Positions 805 through 54,397 of a DNA stretch of 64,000 nucleotides are shown piece by piece. The notes under the pieces were generated by a model. It was not told where the DNA came from. It saw only the letters and a program-made list of their open reading frames with translations, and searched no databases. The stretch spans positions 1-64,000 of the IMG/VR virus record IMGVR_UViG_3300034072_000514; one strand, given 5' to 3'. A program made the position numbers and the translations under genes. This DNA comes from a virus. The first letter of the stretch is position 1. Each line of letters starts with the position of its first letter.

Positions 805-810
805 CGTATA

Positions 811-1781: not shown

Positions 1782-1842
1782 TATTTAGCATTTAGTATTT
1801 AATTTCCCTCTCTAAACCTTTTTAAACCAACTGGAGTAAATC

Positions 1843-2632: not shown

Positions 2633-2697
2633 CACTTAGCGACACCGCGGGCTGCTGAGAGGCGGCCTGCTATTATATCAACTCAATTTTAAAAATT

Positions 2698-3771: not shown

Positions 3772-3800
3772 ATCTTTGTATCTATAACAGAAGACTTAAT
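3760..3800 (+). promoter_or_regulatory. Early-region repeat, degenerate copy C
   Basis: aaaagtgagtaaatctttgtatctataacagaagactta aligns with copies A and B. It overlaps the stop codon of the upstream gene. Confidence 0.35.
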
Positions 3801-3845
3801 AAAGCTTCTATCTTTTTTGTTAATTATCTTAAATCAGGAGTGATT

Positions 3846-4349: not shown

Positions 4350-4386
4350 TCAGATCTGTCAATAAATTTTTAAATTAGGAGCAATT

Positions 4387-4770: not shown

Positions 4771-4855
4771 TAAAGGCTTATAAGTGAGGCTTCTATGAGG
4801 CCTTACTTGTGATGGTTTTGTTTAGTGTTAGTTCAACTTTAACTAGGAGTAAATT

Positions 4856-5170
4856 ATGATCGACCGTATTTTGTCGGCTATTGAATCGTTTGCAAAAAGC
4901 TTTGTGTTCGTTGAGAAGCTGTGCATTCGCTGGGAGTTGTTTGAATGTGCAATGGAAGAAAAAGATTGCGAGCGTTTAGAAAAGTATTTGCGATCTGTTT
5001 GTGTTTCGGAAGAGTCTATCGCTAAACTCTCCAACCCCATTAGGCGTAACGTGGAGAAATACCGCGCTAGCCTCATTGAAAGATGGAATATTATTAACCC
5101 ACAAAAACCCTTAAACCAAAGGAGCGTAAGCTATGAAAACCGCAATGATAGTGTTGAGGTCTCTAACTAA
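4856..5170 (+). CDS. Hypothetical protein
   Basis: 104-aa ORF with a taggag RBS. Confidence 0.55.
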   Translation: MIDRILSAIESFAKSFVFVEKLCIRWELFECAMEEKDCERLEKYLRSVCVSEESIAKLSNPIRRNVEKYRASLIERWNIINPQKPLNQRSVSYENRNDSVEVSN

Positions 5171-5401
5171 AGGAATTGATCCTGTAGACGTGGAGTCTCA
5201 TTCTGCTTGGGTTGATTAGAACAAAGCGGTAGAAAGCCACCGCAAACACCCGTCCACAACATCTGAGAGAGCGCTTAGACAATCAGTTACAAGGCTACAC
5301 TTGGCTATTGGTAAGCGTACTCAAAGAGAAACAAGTAGAGAAAAGCAAGTCAGTGAAGATAGTGGGCTTTCCTTTCTTTAACACACTAAGGAGCCAATGC
5401 T

Positions 5402-5536
5402 ATGGTACTACTCGCGATATTTCTAGTATTTTTGTTGGGTCTTCGTATCTCTTATTTATTAGGAGGAGCGAGGATGGTGCTTATAATTGGAGATATAGAT
5501 AATGCTGGTCATCTTAATCGTGGCGATGCTGCTTAA
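5402..5536 (+). CDS. Small membrane peptide (44 aa)
   Basis: AAGGAG at 5388..5393 lies 8 nt before the ATG. The N-terminus is hydrophobic (VLLAIFLVFLLGL). The ORF is below the track size cutoff. Confidence 0.4.
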   Translation: MVLLAIFLVFLLGLRISYLLGGARMVLIIGDIDNAGHLNRGDAA

Positions 5537-5603
5537 AGCTGCTCTAACAGTGTTTCTTGTTCGATCATTTCTTAAAAATCGTCCAGTGAAGTCTGGTAGC
5601 TAA
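5502..5603 (+). CDS. Small membrane peptide (33 aa)
   Basis: GGAG lies 8 nt upstream. The peptide contains LVILIVAMLLKAALTVFLV. Confidence 0.35.
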   Translation: MLVILIVAMLLKAALTVFLVRSFLKNRPVKSGS

Positions 5604-5634
5604 ACATTCGGTTAGAACAACAGAGGGAGTTGAC

Positions 5635-5811
5635 ATGGTGCTATTATTATTAGTTATGTTTCTGATAGTTCTCGCTTTAGGTGCGAAACTTGTGATTCAA
5701 CAGGCAAGGATAAGTGAGCAACTAAAAGAAGTAGCTAAGAATGTGGAGAATGTTTCTGCAGCTACCAAAGAAACAAAGGACCACGTAACGTCTTGGGAGG
5801 TAGAAAGTTAG
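5635..5811 (+). CDS. Small membrane-anchored protein (58 aa)
   Basis: RBS is gagggag. An N-terminal TM segment (VLLLLVMFLIVLALGA) is followed by a charged tail. Confidence 0.5.
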   Translation: MVLLLLVMFLIVLALGAKLVIQQARISEQLKEVAKNVENVSAATKETKDHVTSWEVES

Positions 5812-5855
5812 TTTAACCTCAAGGCCGGTGGATTGTAGATTAATAGGAGTATTAT

Positions 5856-6068
5856 ATGACCGTTACTTTTGCAATACTTATCGGTGTCGCTATTTTTGCT
5901 TTTCTGACTAACATTACATTTTTCGGTACTGTTATCTATATTGCAAAAATATTTAGCAATGTCATAGCGTGGACGATTGTCGCGCTTATTGGCTTGGGTG
6001 TCTTCAAGACGTTCAAGTGTTCTAGGAAGGCAGTTAACCATGCTGGCGCTGATCAAAGCCCAAATTAA
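5856..6068 (+). CDS. Small membrane protein (70 aa)
   Basis: ORF with a taggag RBS and two hydrophobic segments. Confidence 0.55.
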   Translation: MTVTFAILIGVAIFAFLTNITFFGTVIYIAKIFSNVIAWTIVALIGLGVFKTFKCSRKAVNHAGADQSPN

Positions 6069-6198
6069 CAAATTTTGGGGCTTTATGCTATTGTTCCTTA
6101 TGGTGACAATAGTTTTTAGCAAGGTAATATTTGTGCTACTCATCATGATTGGCCTACTTTATCTTGCTTGTGTGTTTTTTGAAGTTCTGACTTTTTAA
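6040..6198 (+). CDS. Small membrane protein (52 aa)
   Basis: In-frame ATG within ORF 5977..6198. The sequence after KFW is hydrophobic. Confidence 0.45.
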   Translation: MLALIKAQINKFWGFMLLFLMVTIVFSKVIFVLLIMIGLLYLACVFFEVLTF

Positions 6199-6204
6199 AC
6201 CAAC

Positions 6205-6246
6205 GCCCTCTGCCGAAAGGTGGAGGGCTTCTCTCTTTTATTTTTT
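6205..6246 (+). terminator. Rho-independent terminator
   Basis: 10-bp stem gccctctgcc/ggtggagggc with a GAAA loop, followed by a T-rich tail ttctctcttttatttttt. Confidence 0.7.
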
Positions 6247-6355
6247 CTATGAATACATATACGGAGAATTGTTATTACAGCCGCTATTGCAATCATTGGA
6301 GGTATTATTGCAAAATTCATTATCCGTGAGCTATGGAATTGGCTCAAAGTAATCA

Positions 6356-8020
6356 TTGATCGAAAACTCCATAATTTCTAATATAATGTTATCTGAAGAG
6401 CAACAAATACTAGCTGAATCAGACGCAAGCCCTCAAGAGCAAGAACCTGTCACTATTTTGGACTGCTTAGTTGCTGATCTTGCTAAACGGCTTTCAGAGC
6501 TGCGAGCAGACAGACAACGGTATACGCACTACCTAAAAGGTACCGATCCAGCCCATCTTATGGAGCTTGGCTATGTATCTCTGCTTGCTGGTATCCAAAA
6601 GAAGGGCACTCTAGTCGAAGTCTGCAGCTCTATTGGTCGGCAGGTTATGGCTATGAAGAAGATGCCGCTAGAATCAGTAGTGGAAGTACATACTGGTTGG
6701 TTTATTCTGATTAGCTTTCTAGAATTAGATATCATCCACTTCTACACAAAGAAGTCATACCACAACAACCGAGCAAGCCAGTACCCTACTTATCACATCT
6801 CAGTGAAGGATTGGGCAGCTATTGGTCAGTTGATGACTATGATTAACAAGGAGCGTGTAGGAGCAATCTTACCCTCTACTAAAGTTCCTGATCCTTGGAC
6901 TTCTGTTTATCACAGCTCGGGAGCTACTATCGTAAAGAAGATTCACTCTTCGATACGTGGGCAACTATCTCCAGAAAAGCAGCCTATACTGTTTAACAAT
7001 CTAAACAAGCTACAGGCAACCGGCTGGCGAATTAATCCTGAAACCTTTTCTGTTTATGAGCAATGTTTGAAGCAGGCTAGCGGGAAGAAGCCTCCGGTGG
7101 ATTCCCCGTTTAAGTTCAGTTCTGAGGAAGACCCGAACCGTAGAGAATCTTTGTTCAGAGAGGCAGAAACAATTAGCAACATCGCTAAGTTGTTCTTGCA
7201 TGAGCCATTCTACCATATGTACAACTATGATTTTCGGTATCGGTTGTATGTTATGACCGCTTACTTACATGAGCAGTCATCTGACAATGCCAAGGGTCTG
7301 CTATTATTTAATGAAGGCGTCCCGTTAGGTAAGGATGGTTTGTATTGGTTAAAGATTCATTGTAGCAACACCTGGGGTCACGACAAGGACACTAAGGAAG
7401 GTCGTGCAAACTTTACATCCAATAATATCAAAGTTTGGATTGAGTACGCTAAAAATCCGCTGATTAACCGTGGTTGGATGAAAGCAGATGCTCCATTTTC
7501 TTTCCTAAGCTGCTGCTTTGAGCTCAAGAAGCTTAGGGACTGGCTCATAGCTGGAAAGAGTATTGAAACATTTGTTAGTCATCTACCTTGCTATATCGAC
7601 GGCTCAACCAATGGTACTCAGCATCTGACAGCGATGTCTAAGGATGAGTCGATTGCACATCTTGTCAACCTGGTTCCGACGGAGCTTCCAGGTGATCTTT
7701 ATATGTACATCGCGGGGCATACCTGGAATACTATTAAGGAGGCGTATGATCGAACACCAAAAGAGATTGTAGCTAAGTTTCAATCTGTCTGGGATGAAGG
7801 CCGCCGATTGCATTCGCTATATGCATCTGCTCCGCCAAAGTCAGAACAGCGTGTTGCGGCTTATGCTAAAGTTTCAGAGTGGCGTAACCATAATCGGGAC
7901 ATCCGAGAAGCTCTCTTTCCGGTATACTGGATGGGCGTTGACAACCCTAAAGACCAGCGTAAAGCAGTTAAGCGCCCTGTGATGACTCTCGGTTACGGAG
8001 GCACAGCCTACGGCATGGGT
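6356..8020 (+). CDS. T7-like single-subunit RNA polymerase, exon 1
   Basis: DFRYRLY (T/DxxGR region), YIDGSTNGTQH (motif A) and KRPVMTLGYGG (motif B). The start is uncertain (TTG 6356 or ATG about 6386). The exon ends at the U at 8020. Confidence 0.9.
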
Positions 8021-8800
8021 TAATATAGGCTCATGTAAAATCTCGTGAATTCGGTGAACAGCCTCTTAGAGGCCAATACCGAGCCAAGCTTAACCGATAA
8101 GGTTTTGAAGGTGTAACGACTATTCCGAAAGGAAGTACATCCAAGTGGATGGAAGCGCGAGACAGCGTTAAAGCTGAAGAGATAGTCTGATCTATACAGT
8201 AATGTATAGCGGTTGCGTCGCTGTAACCGGAGAATATATGGAAGAGATTTGGAAGAGTGTAGATAATTACGAAGGGGCGTATGAAGTCTCTTCTTTAGGT
8301 AGAATTAGAAGTTTAGATAGAGTAGCCGTAGACGGCTCTAATATTAAAGGTAGATTACTAAAGTTTTCATATGATGGGTCAGGATACCATAAAGTGAACT
8401 TATTTAAATTTGGTGAAAATCAATATTTAAAAGTCCATAGGTTAGTAGCTATTGCATTTGTTCCTAATCCTGAAGGTTTACCACAAGTGAACCATAATGA
8501 TGGTAACAAAGAAAATAATTTCTATAAGAATTTAATTTGGTGCACTAATCAAACAAGTACGATCCATGCATACGAGAATAAGTTAACTACCAATCAAGGC
8601 GAAACACATTATAAAGCTAAGTTAGATAAAGAAAAAGTTTTATTTATTAGAGCTTCTACTTTAAGTGTAGCTGAGCTTTCTGATAAATTAGGCGTATCTA
8701 GCTCCAGTATAAGAGATGTGATTAATCGTAGGTATTGGAAATCTGTGTAAATTAAGCGACGCAACGGTGTTAGCCTAACAAACTGACATGAACATAAATG
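8021..8800 (+). mobile_element. Group I intron in the RNAP gene
   Basis: It interrupts motif B. Joining 8020 to 8801 gives ...YGMG|QQVNDDT in frame. The core gaattcggtgaa..gtaacgactat..gatagtctgatctata is shared with the intron at 17650..18433, and the intron ends in ...cataaatG. Confidence 0.8.
8238..8750 (+). CDS. Intron-encoded HNH homing endonuclease (NUMOD4 + HNH + C-terminal HTH-like)
   Basis: WKSVDNYEGAYEVSSLGRIRS, then HRLVAIAFVPNP..VNHNDGNKENN..NLIW. The ORF is looped out between complementary segments ggttgcgtcgc and gcgacgcaac. Confidence 0.85.
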   Translation: MEEIWKSVDNYEGAYEVSSLGRIRSLDRVAVDGSNIKGRLLKFSYDGSGYHKVNLFKFGENQYLKVHRLVAIAFVPNPEGLPQVNHNDGNKENNFYKNLIWCTNQTSTIHAYENKLTTNQGETHYKAKLDKEKVLFIRASTLSVAELSDKLGVSSSSIRDVINRRYWKSV

Positions 8801-9415
8801 CAACAAGTGAATGATGATACCAAAGGTATGTCTGAATACTTGCGGGATAAGGAACCAATGTGGGGTACTATGCTTGGCAAGCTAGTCTATAAAACCTGTT
8901 ACGAAAAGCTACCTGGACCTGCGCGGATGCTTGCACTGTTTAAGCACCTTGCGGACATCTCTAATGCTCGCGGTGAGTATCTGAGCTGGACAGTACCTAT
9001 CACCAATGCTCCGGTTGTGCAAGCGTATCGGATGCCTGTAGCTAAGCGAACTAAGCTTACTTATGGGGAAGAAGAGTTGAAAGTGCAGATCGAAGCCTGG
9101 GATGAAGCAAGGCTGAATGAGTCTGCGTCTAGCACTGGTGCAGCTCCAAATATCGTCCATAGCTTTGACGCGGCTCATCTTGCTATGGTGCTTGACTCAG
9201 CAGATTTCCCTATGTCTGTTATTCATGACTCATTTGGTTGTCATGCGGGTAATATGGATAAGCTTTTTGTGTTAGCTCGAAAGGAGTTCGTAGAATTTTA
9301 TGAAGTAGACCCACTCGCTCTGTTACTTGAGGAACTGATGGTTCCAGAGCTAATGCCTGAACGAGGTAACTTAGACATTTCTAAAATTATGGAAAGCGAC
9401 TATGCATTTCTCTGA
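8801..9415 (+). CDS. T7-like single-subunit RNA polymerase, exon 2
   Basis: Contains SVIHDSFGCH (motif C) and ends in ...DYAFL. Confidence 0.9.
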   Translation, partial: QQVNDDTKGMSEYLRDKEPMWGTMLGKLVYKTCYEKLPGPARMLALFKHLADISNARGEYLSWTVPITNAPVVQAYRMPVAKRTKLTYGEEELKVQIEAWDEARLNESASSTGAAPNIVHSFDAAHLAMVLDSADFPMSVIHDSFGCHAGNMDKLFVLARKEFVEFYEVDPLALLLEELMVPELMPERGNLDISKIMESDYAFL

Positions 9416-11267: not shown

Positions 11268-11350
11268 ACATGACAAAGACCTTGATAGCCTTTAATTTAG
11301 GCGTAATGTGGGTGCTTTAATAGCGAGCCTAACAGTAAAATACCTACTTT

Positions 11351-11520
11351 AGCGAGTCTGCTCGGTGGCGGCGACCTCAGGGGTGACCCGCCTGGTACCC
11401 AGGTTGGTCCAGCTAGGTACCCCGGCGCGGGTGGGATGGGGGTACCCATGGGCCGGGTCAACGGCTCGCCCTAGGCCCAACCACCAGGGGACGCTAAAGC
11501 CCCAGTGGCCTCCCCCGGTT
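11351..11520 (-). repeat. GC-rich element, copy E2, inverted relative to E1 and E3
   Basis: Hand count gives about 70% G+C over 11381..11440. 11433..11451 is the exact reverse complement of 42358..42376 (19/19). 11391..11417 is the reverse complement of 42392..42418 (25/27). It contains three GGTACC palindromes. Confidence 0.65.
11481..11510 (+). promoter_or_regulatory. GACGCTAAAGC motif, copy A (candidate phage-RNAP promoter ahead of the replication block)
   Basis: caccaggggacgctaaagc is identical over 19 nt to the copy near 20207..20225. The 11-nt core recurs at 42612..42622. All copies are followed by agtggc or aggtggc. Confidence 0.4.
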
Positions 11521-11742
11521 AATAATAGTATTATTATATTATTGTTAACCATATCTCTTAGTGGTACATACAGTTCCCTGTAGTATCCCTCTCTTGTTAG
11601 CTGTTAGTTTACTTACTAATAACTTACTATGTAGAGCTTACCTGCTGTTAGCTTGCAGTAGGTATTATTCTCATCTAACCTCCCTAATTGCTGTTTTAGA
11701 AGGATAATTTATGTTTAAGTTCTAATAAGGTTTATAAAGCAT

Positions 11743-16292: not shown

Positions 16293-17649
16293 ATGACTAG
16301 ATTAGTGTTCGACATTGAGGCGAATGGGCTTCTTAAGGATGTCTCAAAAATATGGATGCTTTGTGCGGAAGATCTGGACACAGGAGTTAAATACGATTTT
16401 TGTGACTATGACTCTTCCTGCTATCCTCTTAAGGAGTACAAAGATCTGTTAGCGGAAGCTGATGAGTGTATCGGTCACTTTGTGCTAGGCTACGACTTTC
16501 CTGCACTCGCTAAAGTAGACGGCTTCGTTCTACCTAAAGGGGTTAAGGTTAAGGATACGTTGCTGATGTCGCAGGTGTTAGACTATATGCGATTCGGCTA
16601 CGATGGTCATAGCTTAGATCGGTGGGGTGAATATCTTGGAATCCCTAAACCTGAGCATAAAGTCTGGACTGAGTACTCTCCTGAAATGTTGCACCGCTGT
16701 CGGGAAGATAGGAGGATTAACGTTGAAACCTACAAACTTTTAGTTAATGAGTTCAAGAAGCTACACAGCAAAAAGCCGGTAATTGCCCAGTCACTGCGTA
16801 ATGAGCATAAATGTTTACAGTTTGTAACCCAAGCTGAAATCCTTGGTTGGCCTTTTGATGTACCGGCTGCTGAGAAGCTATTGTTGGAGATCGAGGAGGA
16901 AGAAAGAAAGGTAGCACAAAAAGTTGAACCACTTTTACCTCCATTAATTCGTCTTGCAGACAAGGAAATTAAGGAGCCTAAATGGACAGCTTCCGGTAAG
17001 TACCATAGTCATATTGCTAAGTATTTCGAGATCGACCCTGAAGACGGTCTTCGTGACTTTCCTACAGTAGTAGGCCCGTACATGAAGATTGATCTTATCA
17101 AACCTGATATGGGCTCGATCGAAGCAGTTAAGCAGCTGTTATACTCTATTAATTGGGAACCAGATGATTGGACTTGGAAAAAGGAAGGACGGTCTCTTAC
17201 TAAGAAAGCCCCTAAGCTCTCCACAAGTTCTCTTTTGCCGCTTGGAGAAATAGGAGAGGCAATCGACAAGTTCTATACGCTTAGAAGTAGGGCTTCAATG
17301 GTCCGCGGACTTCTTGAAGAAGTTGATGATAATGGAAGAGTTCACGGTAGCTGCTTTCTTATTGGAACACCCACAGGACGCTCCACCCACAAAGGAATTG
17401 TTAACATACCAGGTGGTGAAGCTCTATATGGCGAAGCAATTCGGAAACTATTCATAGCTAGACCTGGTCACAAAGTTATTGGTGCGGACTCGTCTGGTAA
17501 TCAGATGCGTGCTTTTTGCCATTATCTGCGTAACGATGAGTACACGAATGAGGTGATCAACGGGGATGTCCATACTAAAAATATGGAGGTTCTGCAAGAG
17601 ATTGTCCCGTCTACCACACGGAAAAAGGCTAAGCCATTTTTGTATGCGT
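16293..17649 (+). CDS. Family A DNA polymerase, exon 1
   Basis: VFDIEANGL (Exo I), GADSSGNQMR (motif A) and RKKAKPFLYA (first half of motif B). Confidence 0.9.
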
Positions 17650-18433
17650 CGAATGAGAGCGCAGTTTAAACCGGGAGAATTCGGTGAATCCCCGCTAGGG
17701 CAATACCGAGCCGAGCTTAAGTAGCAATACTTTTGAAGGTGTAACGACTATCCCGAAAGGGAGTACACTCAAGCGAGTGGAAGCACCCGGCATGAGAAAT
17801 CATGATGATATAGTCTGATCTATATAGTAATATATAGCTGTTGCCGCACAACAGAGAAATAAATGGAAGAAGTTTTTGTACCAATAACAAATTACGAAGG
17901 TATTTATGAAATATCGAATTTAGGTAGAGTCAAGAGTTTAGCCAGGGTATCTGCAAGCGGAGCTAAACTAGCACCAAAGATCTTAAAGACATCAGTCAAT
18001 GGCGCTGGTTACCTTAGCGTTTCGCTGTATAAAGGCGAAGGTAAGTGGACAACAAGAGTTCATTGCTTGGTAGCCGCTGCTTTTGTAGAAAATAAGAACC
18101 CCGCTAAATTCAATATAATAAACCACCTTGATGGAGACAAACTCAACCCTGCTAGCACAAACTTAGAGTGGAGCGACCACTCAGGCAACGCACTGCACAG
18201 CTACGCTAGCGGTTTAAGTAGTAACCAAGGTATAACTCACCGATCGAACAAGCTAACTGAAGATGAAGTTAGGTATATTAGATCACAAAAGGGATTGGTA
18301 CATATAGATGAGCTAACTAGTAAATTCAACGTACACCGCCAGACCATTTACGGTATTTGGCAAGGTAAGTACTGGAAGAGTTTGAAATAAGCGGCAACGG
18401 TAGTAATCTAGCGAATTACTGCGAACACAAATG
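17650..18433 (+). mobile_element. Group I intron in the DNA polymerase gene
   Basis: Joining 17649 to 18434 gives KPFLYA|FLFGGGADK, a complete Pol A motif B. The core is highly similar to the intron at 8021..8800, and the intron ends in ...cacaaatG. Confidence 0.8.
17863..18390 (+). CDS. Intron-encoded HNH homing endonuclease (NUMOD4 + HNH)
   Basis: ITNYEGIYEISNLGRVKS, then HCLVAAAFVENKNP..INHLDGDKLN..NLEW. Confidence 0.85.
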   Translation: MEEVFVPITNYEGIYEISNLGRVKSLARVSASGAKLAPKILKTSVNGAGYLSVSLYKGEGKWTTRVHCLVAAAFVENKNPAKFNIINHLDGDKLNPASTNLEWSDHSGNALHSYASGLSSNQGITHRSNKLTEDEVRYIRSQKGLVHIDELTSKFNVHRQTIYGIWQGKYWKSLK

Positions 18434-20155: not shown

Positions 20156-20868
20156 CTCTGATAGACGGCGACCCTCTCGTGTACACCGCGAGCTGGGGCA
20201 AGGCCACACCAGGGGACGCTAAAGCACACCTCAGGTGGCTGGTGAACGATGCGATTGAGACTACTATGGCTGAGGACTATCTTATAGCAATAGGTAACAG
20301 GGATAGCTCACGTAATTTCAGGTGTGAGCTGTTTCCTTTCTATAAGAAGTCTGCTACACGGCAAGGCTCTAAGGAGAAGTTGCAAGACTGGTTTCCTAAG
20401 ATCAAAGACTGTCTTGCCGGGATGCTTAATGTTTATGAGTGCGATGGGTACGAGGCTGACGATCAGCTGCGTATCTGGGCAGGTGAAGCTGAAAGAAGCT
20501 CTGACCCTTTTGTGATACACTCTATTGATAAAGATCTGGACGCTATTGTTGGATTACACTACAACTCTAAGCGGAAGGAATTTTACAAAGTACCGCAGGA
20601 ATACGCTGATTGGTTCTTTTGGAAGCAATGTCTTATGGGAGACTCCATTGACAATATTCCAGGGATACCTCGCGTAGGTCCTGTTACCGCAGATAACATT
20701 TTAGCTCCCGGCAAGAACTGGGATGACTGGGAACGACTCACAGTAACTGCCTACAAAGGTAAATACGGTGATCAGTGGTGGGAGTACCTTATGGCAAATG
20801 CTAGATTGCTTCATATCTGGCGCTTTCATAATGACCACTTCCAACTTGACAAGGCTAAGTACGACTAA
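20149..20868 (+). CDS. 5'-3' exonuclease / flap endonuclease
   Basis: LIDGDPLVY, YEADDQL, IDKDL and the H3TH segment GDSIDNIPGIPRVGPVTA. Confidence 0.85.
   Translation: MLALIDGDPLVYTASWGKATPGDAKAHLRWLVNDAIETTMAEDYLIAIGNRDSSRNFRCELFPFYKKSATRQGSKEKLQDWFPKIKDCLAGMLNVYECDGYEADDQLRIWAGEAERSSDPFVIHSIDKDLDAIVGLHYNSKRKEFYKVPQEYADWFFWKQCLMGDSIDNIPGIPRVGPVTADNILAPGKNWDDWERLTVTAYKGKYGDQWWEYLMANARLLHIWRFHNDHFQLDKAKYD
20205..20240 (+). promoter_or_regulatory. GACGCTAAAGC motif, copy B, located inside the FEN coding sequence
   Basis: 19-nt identity with the intergenic copy A, followed by tcaggtggc. Confidence 0.3.
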
Positions 20869-21513: not shown

Positions 21514-21571
21514 ATTAGTTTTTTAGCTTAACCTGACTTTTAATTGCAATTTTATAGTTTTAAGGATTAAT

Positions 21572-22147
21572 ATGACCGATTTCAACTCTAACACTTCCGA
21601 CATTACTGCTGAATCCGCTGGCGGCGCTCCAACTACCGAAGTGGTGGCTACTGTTAAGAAGACTAGCAAGCCGAAGGACTACGTTACTAAGGAGAACCTG
21701 ACGCAAGAGCTGCTGAAGGAATGGTTGGTGCTGGGTGAAGATAACTATTTCTACTGGGTCAAGCCTACTGTGCGTTCGCTGGCCGGTGACTTCGCTGGTA
21801 CTATCAACATCGCTACTGACAAGTACACTGTTGTGTTCAAGGGTACCACCTATAATGGCGTGGCTCTGCGCCAGTTCTATAACGAAGGTACATGGCCTGC
21901 TACAGCAGTTCGTCAGCCCAAGCTGGATGAGAATGGTAACCCAATTGTGAAGGCTGCACCTGTTCCTCGTGTTCAACGTGTTGCTCCTACCTTCACTCCC
22001 GAACAGCGTGAAGCTGCTAAGAAGGCTCACCAAGACAAGCTGGCGGCTCTGGCTGCAAGTAAGGCTGCTAAGAAGGCTGCAGAAGCCACTAAGGTTTCAG
22101 AAACTGAAGTGGTGCAGCAAGCTCAGGCAGAATCTGGCGAGTTCTAA
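21572..22147 (+). CDS. Hypothetical protein, paralog 2
   Basis: LTQELLKEWLVLGEDNYFYWV..GDFAGTI. Ends in ...AESGEF. Confidence 0.65.
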   Translation: MTDFNSNTSDITAESAGGAPTTEVVATVKKTSKPKDYVTKENLTQELLKEWLVLGEDNYFYWVKPTVRSLAGDFAGTINIATDKYTVVFKGTTYNGVALRQFYNEGTWPATAVRQPKLDENGNPIVKAAPVPRVQRVAPTFTPEQREAAKKAHQDKLAALAASKAAKKAAEATKVSETEVVQQAQAESGEF

Positions 22148-27150: not shown

Positions 27151-27886
27151 TAAATCTGGTGCTCGTAAAATCTATTGAATTGCTGGGATAGCTCTAGTAG
27201 CCAATCAGCAGCCAAGCTTACTGACCTGAAAGAAAGGTCAATATGAAACCACATCCAATTTACACTAAGTACTCTGCTAACGAGTTAGGTAAAATTATTG
27301 GAATTAGAGGCGAGATAACTCCGCACTTCCATAAAAGTACGGGTTACCTGAGATTTTCTATCAGGCATGATGGCAAAATCAAATCTATTGCCGCTCATAG
27401 ATTTATTTGGGAATGTATTAACGGGTTAATTGCCGATGATACACTAGAAATAAATCATAAAGACGGTGATAAGACGCACAATAAGCTAGTAAATTTAGAG
27501 CTGGTTACAGCTTCTGAGAATTGTTTACATAGGTCTACACTTTACTCCGAGACAGGTAGAGGGGAGTCTAATGCAGCTGCTAAACTAAGTGAAATACAGG
27601 CAAAAGAGTTAATATCTCTTCTACCTTATAAACGTAATGTCGAGCTGGGTTTACAATTTGGTCTTCACCCGCAGTATGTTTCTTTAATTAGGACAGGTAA
27701 GCGGTGGAAGCATTTACAATAGTGGTCAGTAAGAAGGTTCAACGACTATCCCTAAGGGGAGTACACCTAAGTAGGTGGAAGCAGTAGATACAGGAAACTG
27801 TAATGATATAGTCTGATCTATATGGCGACATATAGCTGCAAGTAAAGTTGCGGGTATTGATTAACGACCAATACTGAACATAAATG
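27151..27886 (+). mobile_element. Group I intron in nrdB
   Basis: Joining 27150 to 27887 gives WSI|RDETLH (second ExxH iron ligand) in frame. The 5' part (aattgctggga..cagcagccaagctta) resembles the intron at 52628..53392. The intron ends in ...cataaatG. Confidence 0.8.
27243..27722 (+). CDS. Intron-encoded HNH homing endonuclease
   Basis: HRFIWECINGLI...INHKDGDKTHNKLVNLE. The ORF is looped out between tactgacc and ggtcagta. Confidence 0.8.
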   Translation: MKPHPIYTKYSANELGKIIGIRGEITPHFHKSTGYLRFSIRHDGKIKSIAAHRFIWECINGLIADDTLEINHKDGDKTHNKLVNLELVTASENCLHRSTLYSETGRGESNAAAKLSEIQAKELISLLPYKRNVELGLQFGLHPQYVSLIRTGKRWKHLQ

Positions 27887-41780: not shown

Positions 41781-41857
41781 CCCTCTTATACGCTTGCTGG
41801 GTACCTTCGGGTGCCTGGTGGGTGTATAAGAGGGGTATTTCTCTTCTATTTTTTTTG
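41781..41857 (+). terminator. Strong compound hairpin terminator closing the replication block
   Basis: 11-bp outer stem ccctcttatac (41781..41791) / gtataagaggg (41824..41834), an inner ggtacc-ttcg-ggtgcc hairpin, then a T-rich tail ending in tttttttt. A further 8-bp hairpin lies at 41731..41762. Confidence 0.65.
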
Positions 41858-41885: not shown

Positions 41886-42302
41886 ATGAGCTTACTCGAT
41901 AGAAAAGGTCCGGTATTCTATGTATATTTACACTATGAAATCGTAAATGGTAATAGGGAAATTGTGTATGTAGGTAAGGGTTCAGGCGGTAGGGCATGGG
42001 ATGCTAGACCTACTACTAGAGGTAATAACGGAGGGCATAATGACCATTGTGGGTGGATATGCGATAAGATCCTTAATGATGTACCGTTTGTCCAGCTATT
42101 CGCTACTAAAATCCTGAGTAGTGAGGCACTAGAAATTGAAAAGAGGTTGAGAGAACAGTATAAGCCTCGGTTTAATGTCTCTAGTGGTAACTCAAATCTA
42201 AGTAACTCAAATCTAAGTAACTCAAATCTAAGTAACTCAAATCTAAGCGCTAGGGGCATGACTGTTGGCGATCTGAAGGCTTCTGCTTTGACGGTGAGCT
42301 AG
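41886..42302 (+). CDS. Free-standing GIY-YIG-type endonuclease with a C-terminal pentapeptide repeat
   Basis: VFYVYLHYEIVNGNREIVYVGKGSGGRAW, with (SNSNL)x4 near the C-terminus. Confidence 0.6.
   Translation: MSLLDRKGPVFYVYLHYEIVNGNREIVYVGKGSGGRAWDARPTTRGNNGGHNDHCGWICDKILNDVPFVQLFATKILSSEALEIEKRLREQYKPRFNVSSGNSNLSNSNLSNSNLSNSNLSARGMTVGDLKASALTVS
42187..42246 (+). repeat. Perfect 15-bp tandem repeat x4 (gtaactcaaatctaa)
   Basis: Read directly from the sequence. It is in frame inside the GIY-YIG ORF. Confidence 0.95.
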
Positions 42303-42330
42303 CTTTACAGTGGATAGCTCGCCTAAGGTT

Positions 42331-42468
42331 GCTCCACCTTGGGCCTGGGAGCCCTCCCCATGGGTACCCCCATCCCGACCCCACAAGGGTGCCTAGCCGG
42401 ACCAACCTGGGTACCAGACGGGCACACCGTGGGTTCTGGCAGGTGACAGGCGGCTGCGGGGTGACAAA
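42331..42468 (+). repeat. GC-rich element, copy E3
   Basis: Shares 19/19 and 25/27 blocks (inverted) with E2 and is collinear with E1. It is intergenic. Confidence 0.65.
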
Positions 42469-42529
42469 TGGTAATAAGAGAAGTAGCAGACAATTAGTAG
42501 TTCTCATCCTCTAAAGTTACCACTGTAGC

Positions 42530-42936
42530 CCTCACACTGACCATCCCTCATAACCACACCATACCCTCACCTTCCATTCCTACTTCCTCACGGGCACCCG
42601 GTACACGAGGTGACGCTAAAGCAGAAGTGGCGGGTCTGAGAGGTGGACTGCCGGGAGCATGGACTGGGGACTGTAGGGTGGACTGGACCTGGTAGAAACA
42701 TGCTATGAGACACTACTATTAAAGGTAGGAGGGTAGGGTGGAGGGTTCTCTATAATATTATAATATACCTTAAGGTACCTAATATATCCTTAATATACCT
42801 TTAAGATACCGTAGCGTAAGCTGCTAACCATGATTAATCAAATAATTAAAATCAAATAAATAAATTATAAAGAATTTTATAGTATCTAACAGTACCTAAT
42901 AGATACTATAAGGTTCTCTTTATAGGGTTTTTATAT
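42530..42936 (+). promoter_or_regulatory. Structured non-coding region: C-rich tract, G-rich tract with GGACTG x4, AT-rich repeats and a 10-bp inverted repeat
   Basis: GGACTG starts at 42645, 42661, 42668 and 42680. taatatacct-TAAG-gtacc occurs at 42761..42779 and 42791..42810. tatagtatct (42878..42887) pairs with agatactata (42901..42910). Confidence 0.45.
42603..42635 (+). promoter_or_regulatory. GACGCTAAAGC motif, copy C (candidate promoter ahead of the morphogenesis block)
   Basis: acacgaggtgacgctaaagcagaagtggcggg has the same core and the same downstream agtggc as copy A. Confidence 0.4.
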
Positions 42937-43674
42937 ATGAATGATATTCCTTTAGAAGATCTTGACGAGATCAACAGGGGTTTACCCTCATTTGCTCTTG
43001 GTAACTTTACAGGTCTCATTAAGAGGCCTAAGAAGACTACTGGTGGAGCCTCCTCTATTATTAATGAGGAGACTGCAGGGTTACTCAATGGTTATGCTGC
43101 ACTTAAGAAAGTGATTGCTGCTGGAGAAGCTACTGATGACGATATCAGGGCTATTCATGGTGGATACTCTCTTACCCACTTCAAGATCGATTACGATATG
43201 CTTGGGGATCACTATGTATCTGACTATAGGGCTCTTATAACTCCTGAAGAGTTTGATGTGCTTGTCAACATCTATAAGCGTAGGAATGCTAATAAGGAAA
43301 ATTTTAGGTTCCGTATTAGTAGGTTTACTAAGCTAGAGATTCCTACTGCTGCTTCTGTCAGGGAGTACTTGTACGATTATACTCCTATTCTTGAGGCAGT
43401 CCATAAGAACATTGTGGATGGTGTGTCTTTTGAGACTAGGAAGATGAGCACATCTAATAAGTATAAGTTGTATTTGTTGATGTATAATGATGAGCTGCGT
43501 GCAGGCTCTGAGGAGCACCTTGCTGTTGCTGATCAATTACACCTTGAGGCTATGAATCTTGAGTTAGCAGAAACTAATGCTATCCGTCAGATCATGGGGT
43601 TATCTATGGTGTCTGAGGAAGAGATGCTTGATAGGGTCTCTGGTAGAGTCCGTCATGACTCCAATGCGGTATGA
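42937..43674 (+). CDS. Hypothetical protein, first gene of the late block
   Basis: 245-aa ORF. Confidence 0.6.
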   Translation: MNDIPLEDLDEINRGLPSFALGNFTGLIKRPKKTTGGASSIINEETAGLLNGYAALKKVIAAGEATDDDIRAIHGGYSLTHFKIDYDMLGDHYVSDYRALITPEEFDVLVNIYKRRNANKENFRFRISRFTKLEIPTAASVREYLYDYTPILEAVHKNIVDGVSFETRKMSTSNKYKLYLLMYNDELRAGSEEHLAVADQLHLEAMNLELAETNAIRQIMGLSMVSEEEMLDRVSGRVRHDSNAV

Positions 43675-43773: not shown

Positions 43774-44430
43774 ATGAGCGCAAAGACTACAGGTCCTGGT
43801 AGGACTATTAAGCGCAAGGCACTTGTAAATATTCAACCCTTGCACTCTTCATCTCGGCTCGGTGAGCTTGGGATGGATCCACTTCAGGCTACTATTGATA
43901 ACATTAGGGCTATGGAGTTGCAACTTTATATGATGAGGCAGTTGCCTAAGCGGACTCTTATTGGTGAGGTAACGCTTCAAGGGCAGATCTCTAAGGCTTT
44001 GCAGAGCTTGATTCCTTATGGTTATCTTACTGCTGCTGAGGCTGAACGGCAATTGGCTATTATGAGGGAGAAGGGTGTAGGGGATGCTGAGGGTGATGAG
44101 GGGATTCAGATCTTTCTCACATCGCAGGACAATGCTGTATCTGCGGAGATTTCGATGGGAAAACACAAGGTGAGTACGTTTCCAGAAAACCCGAATATCG
44201 AAACTAACACTATTGGTGCCCCAGAATCTACATCCACTGGTGCCACTGCATTTGTGCCTGATGCAAATATCCCTGAGGAGTTACGTGGAATGCACTATGC
44301 AGACCGTGTAGATATTGAAGCTGGTATCGCTGTGTACCAGACAGAGGATGGTGAAATTAAGGATCTTAGTAAGACCTCAAGTAGCACTATCGGCTCTGTT
44401 ATGTCTAGTAACGGACCTTCGCATGCCTAA
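43774..44430 (+). CDS. Hypothetical protein, possibly the small terminase subunit (by position only)
   Basis: 218-aa ORF directly upstream of and overlapping TerL. RBS is taggaggg. Confidence 0.4.
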   Translation: MSAKTTGPGRTIKRKALVNIQPLHSSSRLGELGMDPLQATIDNIRAMELQLYMMRQLPKRTLIGEVTLQGQISKALQSLIPYGYLTAAEAERQLAIMREKGVGDAEGDEGIQIFLTSQDNAVSAEISMGKHKVSTFPENPNIETNTIGAPESTSTGATAFVPDANIPEELRGMHYADRVDIEAGIAVYQTEDGEIKDLSKTSSSTIGSVMSSNGPSHA

Positions 44431-49183: not shown

Positions 49184-52100
49184 ATGTCATATAACCAAGA
49201 GATTTATGACCGTGTAGTGCAGCATTTAGCTGACACAAGGTTATATGAAGCAGAGACTCAAAGTAACGCTTCAAATGCTATTCAAAGGCATCGCCTGCGC
49301 TTGGCTGATCTCTTGGCTAGAGACATTCGGGCAGATGTCGGACCGGAAGTGAACCGTGCTATGACTGAGGTGAACTCTATTACTAGCACGGCAATCACAG
49401 AGTATGGATCTGCTGCTATTACTTTCAATGTTAATAATCTTAACAAGTCTATTGGCAGCTTCTTCACAGTTCGTAAGCCAACTGGAGTAGACGTGCTGCA
49501 AGAGATTGTGGGTAGTAATATTGGTGTTAGCAAAACGCTGGCTCAGCAGTTTAACTCTATCGGAGAGCATGAGCTTATCAGGCTCCAGCAGATCATTGGT
49601 AGAGGTATTCTTGCTAAGGCCTCTCAGGCTGAGATCATTAAGGAGGCTCTTGGTGCTACCTCAATGACAGAGAATCAAGTGCGAGCTCTTGTGCGAACTT
49701 CGCTTACCCGTACTCAGTCAGTAGCTATAGATCGTGTGATGGAGGCTAATGCTGATGTTGTACAAGGTTATAGGTTCACAGCAGTATTAGACGCTAGGAC
49801 TTCAGCTATCTGCTCAGGTCTTGACGGTAAGGTCTTTCCTCTTTCAGAGAAGAAATACCGACCACCAATGCACTGGAATTGTCGTAGTAGTACCGTACCT
49901 GTTCTGAAGAACAAGGCTGACTTGCTATCTACAGACTCCACACGCATCAATAAGAAGGCTCTTGAAGCGCAAAACATAAAGAATCTACAAGGCGATGTAC
50001 CTAAAGTAGAGGATTATGGCGGATGGCTTCGTAGGCAACCTATGGAGGTCAAACTGCAGCATCTAGGTAGCGAAGAACGGGTATCTCTATTTGAGAAGGG
50101 TACGCTTGCTGTTAAGGAATTCTTTACCAGTACAGGTAACCAGATTAGCCTTGCTACTTTACGTAGGCTGGACAACATGCGCACAACAATCTTTCCTAAT
50201 AGGCAGGTCGCATTGGCTAAGGCTGCAGAGGATGGCTTTATGGTTAAGGCTAGCCGTCCTTATGACGTACTACGGTCTCCTCAAATTCAGAATGAGCTGA
50301 AGGCTATGTATATATCTGATGCGAGCAGTATGAACCAACCTATGTCACTAGTAGACTTCCGAGGTACATCACTTGCAGGTAAGCGGGCTACTCGTATCAG
50401 GTCGAATAACGAGTTCGATGAGCGCAACACATCTTGGGATCCTTTTACTGGAGAAGTAAAGAGTACTTTGTTGTACGACCCTGATTTCAATGTGTATCAG
50501 GAGCGTAAAGACTTCTTGTATGCAAGCAAGATTCTGACTAAAGACCAAAAAGACTTTATTGCTTCCTTTGTAGAGAGTCTCGAGGATTCTATTAGTGTCA
50601 ACCAGCAGTCTGCTGTGCTTGAGAATCTTCGCGTTGTGTTTGAGCGTTATGCTAAGGACAAGAAGCCTTGGACAGACCTGATGAATGTCTTGCGAGCAGA
50701 GTCTCAGTACTCTGTAGTAAACGTAAGCCGTATCTTGGACAGGCGTAGTAGAGAGCGGGCTGACTTGTTTAGTAAATACCTCAGTGGTGAGGAACCTAAG
50801 GTGCAGATCTTCGGTGAGTACTACAACTTTGATCAATTATCTGAGCGGCAGCTCGACAATCAGCGGTATATTGACAACTGGAAAAATACTGTAGGTAGGG
50901 AAAAGGCTAGGGACGCTTACTACAGCAAAACTACACCGCTAAGGCAGTTCTTATTTGATCCAAAAGGTAAGTCTAAGAGTTGGTTAAAACAGCTTAAGTC
51001 TGCGCTAGAGAAAGAGTTCCCTGCAGTTAAGCAGCTTGAAGGGTGGGGTAATCCTACTGAGAGCCTCTTGCAAAAGGCTAGTAGGAATCTGCGGGAGAGC
51101 TATCGTAACATCGTTGACCTTGAGTTCTTGTTTCAGCAGAGTAAGAATTCAACCATAAAGTCGCTGTTTAGCCAAATGTTCTTTGGGACTACTAAGGGTA
51201 AAACTTTCACAGATGCACTACTGTCTGAAGGTCTGAATGACGCTAAGGGTATTGACGTATTTGCAGATGTGATGACCCTTGTTGCAGACGGTAAGAGTAC
51301 TGACTATGACTCGCTTGCTATTAACATTGGCAAGAAGATCAACGAGAAGTGGCCTATCGACTTCCCTTTAAGAGCGGTCACTCTGGCTGACCACCATAAG
51401 GCAGGTAGCCGTATTCTTGAAGCTCTGAGGGACCAGAAGAAGATTCGTGTAGTGTCTCGTGGTGTTGTTCGTAGAGCGGCCATTGATATTGATACAGGAC
51501 GTCCTAGCGGTGCATGGCAAGATACTGTCAGCCGTGAGGTTACCATTCTTGACCCTGATATGCTTGAGCTTCAAAAGAGGAACAGGCAGAATATTATCGC
51601 TCAGCGTCTTGGTGTTGTGAGTGATAGGGATAGACTATACGTACGCCCTGGAGAAAAGACTTATTTCGATGCAAGAGGTAAAAATACAGGGCAATCTATT
51701 ATCACTCGTAGGGCGTCTGCTAACTACGATAAGCTGATTGTAGATCGCGATTTTGCAGACATGCTTAATCATACTATGACGGTTGAGTACGAGACTGACA
51801 AGACCTTTGCTAGCTTCATGGATGATGTTGTTCGTTTTAGAGACCCGCGTGGGCAAGTTCAGAAGTATGACGATCTGAATGATTTTCGTAAACTTATTCT
51901 TCAACGGGGAGACCAAGGTTTTGGTTTTATGCAAACAGTTAAATGGCATACTCAGCGGGGAAAGCCCTTTAAGGTTCTTGCTCAAATTGACGGTCGTGGC
52001 CGGGTCTACTATCAAGGCTATCTAACTCCTACCGGGGGTGAGGTGGTTCGACCTTTCCTGAATAGTGCAGTGGCACGACAATTTGGGCCTGAAGAGCTAC

Positions 52101-52627
52101 AAGAGCTATCCATCCAGCTAGGGGCTATGATCGGTCCTGCTACTGAGGCACTTACTCAAGCAGGCCGTATGGAGATATTTATTCGTAATGAAAAGGACGT
52201 TCTTAGTTTGGGTAGGCTGATGATGAGCACTACTCAGAGAGACCGACGAATTAGAGAGTTCCTTGAGCACCCTCTTATTCGCTCTCATGATGCAGAAGAA
52301 ATTCCTAAGATTTCTCGTATGGCACTTGAATATGCCCGCGTATATGATCATGTTGGAGGTAATTTCGGTGATCTCGCTAAGCTACGTACTTATAACACAA
52401 AGCTAATGATTGAGAACGACGCTTCCTCTTCGGGAGCTCAGATTATTGGGCTCTCTACGGGTGATCGATCTATCTCTATTAATAGTAATGTGCTTGCAAC
52501 TGACAAGAAGAACCGACTGTATGACTTGGTCGCTATGGATACTGCTAGTGACCCAGAGTTCCATGCTATCAAGGCTCTTTCAGGAGCTAACATACAGTGG
52601 ACCGATCTTGCAAAAGCAGCTAAGGCT
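49184..52627 (+). CDS. MuF/SPP1-gp7 head-morphogenesis domain fused to a single-subunit RNA polymerase, exon 1
   Basis: YRFTAVLDARTSAICSGLDGKVF..PPMHWNCRSSTVPV (MuF), AQIDGRGRVYY (T/DxxGR) and MIENDASSSGAQIIG (motif A). Confidence 0.85.
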
Positions 52628-53392
52628 TAACATAATGGGTCTTTTAAAATTCCGTTAATTGCTGGGACACCTCACGAAATGAGGCAATCAGCAGCCAAGC
52701 TTAAGTAGGAATACTTTTGAAGGTTCAACGACTAGAGTGTACAATCCAGGCCGGATTATGAGACTCGTAGGGCGCAAGTGCGTTCGAAACGCGGAACAGG
52801 TAGAAATACTTGAAGATATAGTCTGAACTATATAGTGATATATAGGATTAATTGGGACACAAATATGGAAATAATTTGGAAGAATTTCGAAGATACTGAC
52901 TATATTGTTAGTAATACTGGTATAATTATAAATACAAGAACTAACAAAACTATTAACCAGTTTCCGGGAGGTACTGGTGGGTATATGATGGTCAATATCT
53001 GGCACAATAAAATGAACAGAATTGTTGCTGTACATCGTGTAGTGGCAGAAACATTTATTCCAAATCCGTTAAATAAGAGAACTGTAAATCATATCGATGG
53101 CAATAAGCTTAATAATTTCGTAAATAATTTAGAGTGGTCTACCTATTCTGAAAATTTGAAGCATGCAGTTGATACAGGGCTAAACCATCGAGGTATGGCA
53201 AAGCCTAACGCCAAATTAACTGACGATAAGGTAATTGAAATACGTAAACTCTTCCTTAACGGGGCTACAAATAGTGTAATAGCAAAGTTGTATAATGTTG
53301 CTGACGGAACTATTAGCCAAATTCGTAACGGATTCACATGGAAACATGTACAATTAATCGATAGTAATTAACGCCTACTATTTAACATAATG
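52628..53392 (+). mobile_element. Group I intron in the MuF-RNAP gene
   Basis: Joining 52627 to 53393 gives LAKAAKA|QNMVSFYGAG in frame (motif B K..YG). The core aattgctggga..cagcagccaagcttaagtag..ttgaaggttcaacgact..gatatagtctgaactata is related to the other three introns. The intron ends in ...acataatG. Confidence 0.75.
52865..53371 (+). CDS. Intron-encoded HNH homing endonuclease (NUMOD4 + HNH)
   Basis: WKNFEDTDYIVSNTGIIIN, then HRVVAETFIPNP..VNHIDGNKLNN..NLEW. Confidence 0.8.
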   Translation: MEIIWKNFEDTDYIVSNTGIIINTRTNKTINQFPGGTGGYMMVNIWHNKMNRIVAVHRVVAETFIPNPLNKRTVNHIDGNKLNNFVNNLEWSTYSENLKHAVDTGLNHRGMAKPNAKLTDDKVIEIRKLFLNGATNSVIAKLYNVADGTISQIRNGFTWKHVQLIDSN

Positions 53393-54397
53393 CAAAATAT
53401 GGTTAGCTTCTACGGGGCGGGTAAGGCCACTCAGGCAGCTAATATTGAAGCAAAGTTTGCTAAAGTACTAGAGGGTAAGGGATATACCGTTATCACGAAA
53501 GACTCTCTAAAAGCTGCGATAGCTCCTATTAACAAGGCGATTAAAGACGCGGAGTACTTAGGTGCAAGCGAAACCGCTAGGTCTCTTAAAGAAATTAAGA
53601 AAGAGCTCATAGAAGTAGTTAATGGTGAAACAGACATTGGCTATGACCTTATACAAGCGGCTAGGGATGTACATCCTGATGTTAGTCAGTTTGTAGATGA
53701 GCTAACAAACGTAAAAGTGGGTCTTATTGGGCCTGCACAGTTTAAGCAGGTGTCTGAGATTATGTCGAAGCATCTTGCCGAACGTGCTCCCGTTACTGGT
53801 AAGTTCGTGCAATTCTGGAAGCAAGCGTCTAAAGCGTTTATAAATGAAACAGAGAAGGTAGACATCCCGTGGGTAACCTTTGATGGCAAAGTACTTTATC
53901 AGCGTTATAGGCCTAAAATTCAGGAGAGCATCAACTTTATCGATCCTGTCACAGGTAGACGAGTTCGTAATATCTATCAGGATAGCGTAACAGATAGTAA
54001 TCTTCAGGGTAAGTCTAGCATAATTCGTGCTAGTATTGGCTTTGGAGTTAATGGTAACCACATGAATGATGCAACAATTGTTCGCAGATTTCATTTATGG
54101 GGTAAAAAGAATGGTGTAGGTACAGCTACTATCCACGATGCGTTCTTCACTAATATTGGAGATGCAACTAAGGCTAAGTGGGCTCTTAGAGAGATCTATG
54201 CGGATGCCCTTGATGGGGATACCATCCGGAATACACTAAAGAGGATGCGTGATGAAGGTATGTCTGAGGCTACTTATCAAGAGCTTCTTCGCGTAGCGCG
54301 AGAGGACGGCTTAATTGATCCTCCCAACAAAATTACTAGAGCAGATGTGCTAGCAAAGATTCCAAAAGGAATGGACTGGTATGGTATTGGTCCATAG
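53393..54397 (+). CDS. MuF-RNAP fusion, exon 2
   Basis: FYGAG (motif B Tyr-Gly) and GTATIHDAFFTN (motif C). Confidence 0.85.
   Translation, partial: QNMVSFYGAGKATQAANIEAKFAKVLEGKGYTVITKDSLKAAIAPINKAIKDAEYLGASETARSLKEIKKELIEVVNGETDIGYDLIQAARDVHPDVSQFVDELTNVKVGLIGPAQFKQVSEIMSKHLAERAPVTGKFVQFWKQASKAFINETEKVDIPWVTFDGKVLYQRYRPKIQESINFIDPVTGRRVRNIYQDSVTDSNLQGKSSIIRASIGFGVNGNHMNDATIVRRFHLWGKKNGVGTATIHDAFFTNIGDATKAKWALREIYADALDGDTIRNTLKRMRDEGMSEATYQELLRVAREDGLIDPPNKITRADVLAKIPKGMDWYGIGP

Follow-up and report, generated by a model that had tools for sequence, protein, structure and literature searches.

Layout of the hub and its neighboring genes

We analyzed the non-coding hub at positions 42303-42936 (hub 2) of a 64,000-nucleotide stretch of viral DNA (positions 1 to 64,000 of IMG/VR record IMGVR_UViG_3300034072_000514; hereafter, the window), which separates replication genes from packaging genes and holds a promoter-like motif of the T7 family. 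Every gene in the window is on the plus strand, and GC content is about 44%. Neither the window nor the hub has a nucleotide match in the INPHARED phage collection, and a tRNA/tmRNA search found none. Identical contigs are present in sequencing run SRR10854512. A gene map built from protein profiles places early genes at about 800-6300, followed by the gene for a T7-like RNA polymerase (RNAP1, 6356-9415), which contains a group I intron with an HNH endonuclease gene inside, and by a 475-nt non-coding stretch (hub 1, 11268-11742). The replication block (11743-41692) encodes Pol A, a 5'-3' exonuclease, a primase-helicase, ribonucleotide reductase, and ligase. An intrinsic-terminator-like hairpin followed by T8 (41829-41856, plus strand) closes this middle block upstream of a 138-aa open reading frame (ORF; 41886-42302, plus strand) that borders the hub. 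The first late gene encodes a 245-aa protein (42937-43674, plus strand). It is followed by a 218-aa gene (43774-44430, plus strand) directly upstream of TerL, by TerL, PhoH, and portal genes from 44441 onward, and, from 49184 onward, by the intron-split gene for a 1148-aa fusion of Phage_Mu_F to a second T7-like RNA polymerase (RNAP2). This arrangement would give a simple transcription map, running from the early block through hub 1 to the replication block and through hub 2 to the late block.

The 218-aa protein had no match in PHROG, protein families, or the PDB; therefore, its label as small-terminase-like (TerS-like) is positional. It is homologous to the first post-hub gene in three related loci (L002, L003, and L004). 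In the window, 838 nt and one gene, that of the 245-aa protein, separate the hub end from the TerS-like gene. On the other side of the hub, the 138-aa ORF ends in four copies of SNSNL, encoded by a perfect 15-nt tandem repeat (GTAACTCAAATCTAA, 4.1 copies, 42187-42247). A GIY-YIG identity for this ORF was set aside, as it showed motif resemblance only, with no Pfam or PDB sequence support. In L019, a related 27-kb ENA scaffold, the corresponding tandem repeat is non-coding because the homologous ORF stops before the repeats. Therefore, the functional non-coding hub of the window probably begins near 42180.

As the original prediction proposed, the hub is the largest gene-free stretch in the window, and an ORF scan revealed no plausible or credible small ORF inside it. 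All of the features that had been listed are present where they were placed, and most exceed chance. The hub opens with a GC-rich element, E3 (42315-42468), with a core at 42357-42428 and a weaker, marginal left extension (p about 0.02). A C-rich, G-poor pyrimidine tract (42528-42595, plus strand; 49% C and 7% G) contains the 60-mer with the strongest excess of C over G in the 64 kb (42529-42588) and lies directly upstream of the promoter-like motif. Downstream of the motif is an array of G-rich iterons (42632-42685, plus strand) with four copies of GGACTG, including two 19-nt repeats 35 nt apart. The copies at 42645, 42661, 42668, and 42680 are 4 of the 15 plus-strand copies in the window and fall within 41 nt; four copies within 45 nt arose in 0 of 20,000 random placements, and when the local sequence was shuffled, some hexamer turned up four times with P = 0.028.

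A second G-rich tract, ggtaggagggtagggtggaggg (42725-42746, plus strand), is followed by an AT-rich tract (42751-42864), which contains TAATATACCT(T) repeats, the palindrome TTAAGGTACCTAA, and two copies of AATCAAATAA(T/A)TAA; its repeats were detected by both TRF and a repeat search. The 60-mer at 42830-42889 has 6 G/C, the window minimum; the next lowest has 12. The last feature is an imperfect 23-bp palindrome (42866-42922) that forms a predicted hairpin with a free energy of -20.4 kcal/mol (z = -4.8) and ends 15 nt before the first late ATG. The perfect inverted repeat noted earlier in this palindrome is indeed there, with arms of 12 bp (42877-42888 and 42900-42911) rather than 10 bp. It is the sole perfect inverted repeat of at least 10 bp with a 3- to 30-nt loop in the 64 kb. 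Its arms carry the motif TAGATACTATAA(GG), with TACTATAAG present once per arm. The hairpin could be a processing or stabilizing structure, or an operator-like dyad at the DNA level.

The promoter-like motif and its candidate polymerase

Between the pyrimidine tract and the iterons lies GACGCTAAAGC, a sequence that the original prediction had listed without recognizing it as a promoter. Exact copies are located at 11490, 20215, and 42612, all on the plus strand. The sequence is the 3' half of a 20-nt motif, ACACCAGGGGACGCTAAAGC, which occurs at 11481, 20206, and 42603 with 1, 0, and 2 mismatches, respectively. With up to three mismatches allowed, the 20-nt motif had 3 matches in the window, compared with 0 in 100 shuffles. 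All three copies align without gaps, in one register, with the promoters of SP6, T3, T7, and K11. The hub copy is identical to the SP6 promoter, whose sequence was verified, at 15 of 23 positions (AGGTGAC-G-CTA-A-AG); when 28-mers were drawn at random from the window, just 0.2% scored as high against SP6 (P about 0.002). The core GGTGACGCTAAAG is identical to SP6 GGTGACACTATAG at 11/13 positions.

The shared register places the hub promoter, from -17 to +6, at 42604-42626 (plus strand; motif segment GACGCTAAAG), with transcription predicted to start at G42621. The second copy would lie at 11482-11504 in hub 1, with its start at G11499, and the third at 20207-20229 at the 5' end of the 5'-3' exonuclease gene, with its start at G20224 (both plus strand). 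Two of the three copies are in the two largest intergenic hubs, and the third is 57 nt inside the exonuclease ORF. These positions match module starts: before the replication block, at the exonuclease 5' end, and before the packaging block.

The window also encodes candidate cognate polymerases. RNAP1 matches phrog_414 at 2.8e-79 as well as Pfam RNA_pol, and the C-terminal part of RNAP2 matches phrog_414 at 2.5e-9. The RNAP1 gene contains a group I intron at 7951-8209 (71 bits) and a NUMOD4/HNH ORF at 8202-8750, and its exon 2 spans 8798-9415. In RNAP2 (49184-54397), the Phage_Mu_F head-morphogenesis domain occupies aa 135-237 and the polymerase module aa 933-1121 (phrog_414); the gene contains a group I intron at 52579-52845 (86 bits) and an HNH endonuclease ORF at 52835-53371. 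The RNAP2 fusion has a homologue of equal length in L019, and the roseophage DSS3_PM1 has a 1463-aa "minor head protein-like" gene. The domain composition of RNAP2 suggests a virion-packaged single-subunit polymerase unlike the N4 type. A 2017 survey of polyvalent phage proteins described virion polymerases only in N4-like phages.

Four lines of sequence evidence (the copies and their common orientation, a cognate polymerase gene, the resemblance of the core, and the location at module starts) agree with membership in the T7-family promoters. We conclude that the GACGCTAAAGC motif, which is conserved in relatives, is well supported as a T7-family promoter-like element that would act as the late promoter. 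This was one of the roles first proposed for the hub. If so, it would add a new specificity to the T7-family promoters, from a clade that is unstudied. Like the SP6, T3, T7, and K11 promoters, it is a coding-strand motif of about 20-23 nt at module starts in a genome that carries cognate polymerase genes. Unlike those promoters, it has ACAC(C/G) rather than AT-rich DNA at -17 to -13. It also has TAAAG in place of TATAG, as does T3. Further differences are the low number of copies (only three in 64 kb) and the presence of two such polymerases, of which RNAP2 is joined to a MuF head domain.

We consider it likely that the hub forms a transcriptional boundary between the replication (middle) genes and the packaging and structural (late) genes, with a T7-type late promoter. 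According to this model, transcription of the upstream block would end at the hairpin and T run at 41829-41856. The promoter at 42604-42626, of the T7/T3/SP6 type, would then be read, most likely by the free polymerase RNAP1, and a rightward transcript would start at about G42621. Its predicted 316-nt leader would contain the G-rich iterons (+12 to +65), the G-rich tract, the very AT-rich tract, and the stable hairpin. RNAP1, made from the early region, would read all three copies of the motif (in hub 1, at 20207, and in hub 2), so that middle and late genes are transcribed. A different, 49-nt early motif at 806, 1390, and 3755 would be the target of the virion-borne RNAP2 or of the host enzyme.

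That early motif is a repeat, AAAAGTGAGAAAAATCAYGTATCTATAATAGAAGA, at 806-854, 1390-1438, and 3755-3803, with a weak copy at 22564. It lies upstream of early genes with good ribosome-binding sites and lacks a clear -35 hexamer. This repeat is a candidate for a second class of promoter, with RNAP2 or the host polymerase as its reader.

Several points weigh against the hub being a late-promoter boundary. Both the start site and the assignment of the polymerase are ones that we infer. There are only three copies of the motif in 64 kb, one of them within a coding region. The leader as a whole folds no better than shuffles (z = -1.3). A sigma-70 scan was at chance level, and a late promoter for the host polymerase was neither shown nor excluded by it. 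In addition, a promoter alone has no need of about 600 nt of conserved arrays, and therefore more than a promoter is expected here. ATCTGTT, the class II pause and termination signal of T7, occurs at chance frequency in the window and has no copy in the hubs.

Conserved modules, the E element, and further roles of the hub

Among named phages, the roseophages DSS3_PM1 and DSS3_VP1 (Naomviridae) come nearest; their TerL proteins are 56-57% identical to that of the window (57% for DSS3_PM1). The window phage is a distant relative of the Naomviridae. A profile search with the 218-aa family identified relatives at 52-56% identity. L019 has the gene order of the window, including the 1148-aa MuF-polymerase fusion; its TerS-like protein is 52% identical to the 218-aa protein, and a 259-aa protein at the corresponding position is 41% identical to the 245-aa protein (E = 7e-41).

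The L019 hub, at 1163 nt, has the same module order as that of the window. The ORF homologous to the 138-aa ORF (3-113 in L019) stops just before the 15-nt tandem repeats, which in L019 are two copies of GTAGGTAAATGCAGA just after the stop codon. Next comes a GC-rich region, which in L019 contains 6/7 of the GGTACC sites of the locus, an exact GGACCAACCTGG, and an exact 13-mer in common with the flank of E2, the E3 partner in hub 1 described below. The pyrimidine tract (415-490 in L019) is followed by the promoter (AGGTGACGCTAAAGCAGAA in the window), which is identical over 19 nt. Four short G-rich iterons follow, GGACTG in the window and CAGAGGGATTAGGYGC with a 16-nt period in L019, and then a G-rich tract, ggtaggagggtagggtggaggg in the window and gggagtaggggagtgggggaggtggg in L019. 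Finally, AT-rich DNA contains TACTATAAG, once per inverted-repeat arm in the window and as seven direct copies in L019. The L019 copies are all on the plus strand, are confined to the hub, and are partly spaced 11 nt apart, which places them on one face of the helix. Retention of the module order and promoter together with replacement of the iterons is the pattern expected of sites that co-evolve with specific binding proteins. Most likely, the 15-nt repeat, the E3 cluster, the pyrimidine tract, the GGACTG iterons, and the TACTATAAG inverted repeat are binding sites for phage proteins that would time or couple late expression.

Promoter-like motifs were also found in other relatives. DSS3_PM1, which encodes an RNA polymerase and a 1463-aa minor-head-like protein, has 15 plus-strand copies of ATAGG[GT][TG][GA]CG[TC]TAAAG, the majority of them intergenic or at the ends of genes. 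Two of these copies stand in tandem in the pre-terminase hub, directly after a terminator hairpin with T24, and one variant has the 14-mer AGGTGACGCTAAAG in common with the window. The papers searched for the DSS3 phages make no mention of promoters, RNA polymerase, or termini. A second group of promoter-like specificity, seen in relatives further away, comprises CCCGTTAAATTAACCC, GTTAAATTAAC, and TTAACTAAATTAAC, each in or near a pre-terminase hub (L002 2359-2378 and 8533-8552, L003 7115-7129, and L021 about 100-117). The more distant L002 has its own, different 20-nt motif twice, once in its hub, and in L003, a pyrimidine tract lies upstream of the promoter-like motif.

The hubs of L002, L003, L004, and DSS3_PM1 open with a GC hairpin and a long T run. 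L002-L004 and the DSS3 phages share only an outline with the window: a T-run terminator, several hundred non-coding bases with repeats, and a TerS-like gene. This gene directly follows the hub in L002-L004, and one gene intervenes in the window, L019, and DSS3_PM1 (a small one in DSS3). The DSS3_PM1 and DSS3_VP1 hubs resemble the hub of the window in having a terminator, one or more homologous promoter-like motifs, a repeat-rich leader, and packaging genes; these phages also share a 57% identical TerL, PhoH after TerL, an RNA polymerase, and a large MuF-type head protein. However, the DSS3 hubs have no nucleotide similarity to the window outside the promoter, and they differ in having two tandem promoters, different repeats (CCTAATAGGGA and CCCTAATAAGA), and no E-like element. 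In the DSS3_PM1 hub terminator (21528-21613; L012 6925-7010), T24 comes after a GC hairpin roughly 70 nt long, whose loop holds ATCTGTT. In the DSS3_VP1 hub, the T run is 15 nt shorter and the CCCTAATAAGA unit is duplicated.

E3 (70% GC) is one of three GC islands in the window, and its label in the original prediction implied an E family of three members. The GC-rich element is where that prediction placed it, with a single true partner, E2, an inverted copy on the minus strand at 11380-11452. E2 lies in hub 1, between the early/RNAP1 and replication blocks. The E3 core and the reverse complement of 11380-11452 are identical at 60/71 positions without gaps, and their local score is 92, compared with a shuffle mean of 18 +/- 2. 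The third proposed member, E1 (33-241), lies in an ORF and scored 21 against a null of 18.5 +/- 2.4. Because E1 is dissimilar to E3, the E family has two members in the window. Both contain GGTACC-centered palindromes and a canonical four-G-tract motif of the G-quadruplex type, on the plus strand in E2 and on the minus strand in E3.

Other identities considered for E were rejected. Non-synonymous differences exceed synonymous ones in all six frames, in disagreement with a small protein gene. Two conserved 19-mers are absent from IMG/VR viral contigs, and a host-derived or mobile element was likewise set aside; among 185,579 genomes, an E 19-mer had three chance matches only, in coding regions of unrelated genomes. 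No reverse promoter copy was accepted beside E2 or E3, as the candidates share just an 8-mer or align marginally. A blastn search found no E similarity in relatives.

E3 may instead be a relic without function rather than a working part of the hub, left by an inverted segmental duplication that copied the sequence upstream of the promoter in hub 1. Just two copies exist, inverted and about 15% diverged (11/71 ungapped), and E is non-coding, has no significant fold or Rfam match, and has no counterpart in viral contigs and only chance 19-mer matches in genomes. The left flank of E3 also weakly resembles an inverted promoter (p about 0.02). However, E2 and E3 differ mainly within one 15-nt patch, flanked by perfectly conserved blocks of 20 and 19-26 nt, and this looks like constraint. 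Furthermore, the L019 hub has its GC-rich GGTACC cluster at the corresponding place, and it has exact 12- to 13-nt blocks in common with E3 and with the flank of E2. We regard the relic explanation as unlikely and, with modest confidence, favor E as an orientation-independent protein-binding module over a dead duplication.

The GC richness of E3 also raises the idea that the hub encodes a structured non-coding RNA, formed by E3 or by pairing of the C-rich and G-rich tracts. These tracts are partly complementary, as first noted, over 12 nt at 92% (42557-42568 and 42729-42740), and C-tract/G-tract complementarity is found in L019 too. Folding argues against such an RNA: the hub region as a whole folds no better than shuffles (z = -1.1), and neither do E2 and E3 on either strand, as RNA or as DNA. 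Neither hub had an Rfam match at the gathering score or any meaningful match up to E = 10. The two E copies are on opposite strands, and the C-rich tract is upstream of the predicted start site. We therefore consider a structured RNA very improbable.

The original prediction left three roles side by side: replication origin, packaging or terminal region, and late promoter or operator. The late promoter gained support, and the sequence neither supports nor refutes the other two. Nevertheless, three features keep both readings alive: iteron arrays that are conserved, an extreme AT tract, and a location ahead of the terminase genes.

As an origin, the hub would be of the transcription-activated T7 type, in addition to being a promoter rather than instead of it. 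The polymerase would start at 42621, the G-rich non-template leader would favor a persistent RNA-DNA hybrid, and the AT tract 130-300 nt downstream would melt, allowing the T7-like primase-helicase and Pol A to take over. The C-over-G to G-over-C asymmetry flips exactly at the promoter, from the most C-rich 60-mer to the second most G-rich 60-mer of the window (42623-42682), and the leader has seven runs of at least three G within 130 nt. Downstream of the promoter is the most AT-rich 60-mer of the window. The genome has T7-like replication genes (primase-helicase, Pol A, and 5'-3' exonuclease), and iterons and AT-rich DNA are conserved in L019.

In T7, the phi1.1A/B promoters together with an AT-rich region make up the primary origin. 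The hub resembles this origin, as well as the end-proximal "replication promoters" phiOL and phiOR of T7 with their arrays of short repeats, in having a predicted phage-polymerase promoter followed by AT-rich DNA and arrays of short repeats in a long non-coding stretch. However, it lies between replication and packaging genes rather than near known ends, its repeats have other sequences and lengths, and its AT tract, which in T7 is adjacent, starts about 130 nt past +1. In addition, profile searches recognized no initiator gene among the neighbors, and the cumulative GC skew curve runs through the hub without an inflection, although coding on one strand dominates this curve. On balance, an origin here is possible but considerably less probable than the late-promoter boundary.

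Under the origin hypothesis, hub 1, where an AT tract lies 20 nt downstream of the promoter, would be a second or the primary origin. Hub 1 is the second-largest non-coding stretch of the window; it contains the inverted E2, then the promoter at 11482-11504, then, 20 nt past the promoter, a largely AT tract bounded by GGTTAA/TTAACC, and a terminator-like hairpin at 11639-11664. This layout is similar to that of the primary origin of T7, which lies downstream of gene 1.

The hub may also be a packaging recognition region (pac, cos, or a terminus like a concatemer junction), near which terminase would cut. The small terminase would bind TACTATAAG and the AT repeats, possibly with the GGTACC cluster. 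In lambda and SPP1, cos and pac, respectively, lie just upstream of the small-terminase gene, with repeated binding sites. The hub is upstream of TerS-like and TerL genes in all relatives examined. TACTATAAG forms a unique 12-bp inverted pair in the window and the hub-confined, partly 11-nt-spaced array of seven direct copies in L019. As in lambda cosB/cosN, SPP1 pacL-pacC-pacR, and the hexamer arrays of P1 pac, the hub is upstream of packaging genes and combines several short-repeat families with a dyad-symmetric element located in AT-rich DNA. Unlike these sites, it also has a predicted phage-polymerase promoter and a cluster of GC-rich palindromes, and in the window, the 245-aa gene separates it from a gene whose TerS identity is positional only.

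Independent metagenome contigs (L019, L021, L023, and L001) end in or beside the hub, as termini would predict. However, these ends are equally explained by repeats, with which every break coincides: Logan assemblies break at the 15-nt tandem repeat at 42187-42247, and L021 and L023 end inside AT repeats. We therefore did not accept contig ends as evidence of termini. The hub also lies in the interior of two long contigs, the source contig (79 kb) and that of L002 (61 kb). A packaging site at the hub is somewhat doubtful on this evidence, slightly more so than an origin.

Tentatively, the late promoter might have two jobs within one composite element, driving late transcription and licensing replication initiation or terminase entry. 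Licensing might operate through the R-loop-prone G-rich leader, the phage-specific iterons, and the extreme AT tract, and E, with its GGTACC and G-quadruplex-type motifs, might be an orientation-independent accessory site common to the middle-gene hub. If true, this composite would be a transcription-coupled origin or pac region of a clade with both free and virion-packaged (MuF-fused) T7-like polymerases. A module order that is kept while the iterons are swapped is a signature of co-evolving DNA-protein recognition, and therefore the hub is a good place in which to seek the origin or packaging signal of this clade. The late-promoter assignment itself would offer a concrete promoter sequence for almost unstudied marine-type phages, relatives of the dU-DNA Naomviridae. 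A new T7-family polymerase-promoter pair could be used as an orthogonal expression tool.

Other loci in the window

Over the window, Rfam matches were limited to group I introns outside the hubs. Besides those in the two polymerase genes, the Pol A ORF (16293-17669) has a group I intron at its 3' end (17581-17837, 54.6 bits). The conserved 3' end of these introns occurs a fourth time at 27729-27842, just after the ORF at 27243-27722, with a score below the Rfam gathering score.

The E1 tract is the GC-rich, proline-rich linker of a lytic-transglycosylase-like gene (1-753), and a Logan contig of this phage starts inside it, at window position 99. This gene has an apparent switch from frame 3 to frame 1 near 310-330 (GLIEHES...GLGQF, then ...AYNGG), which could reflect a frameshift, a sequencing error, or recoding. 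In the early region, 2698-3771 encodes a 357-aa protein that the precomputed Logan contig annotation assigns to Pfam PF25705 (Gad1, anti-Gabija).

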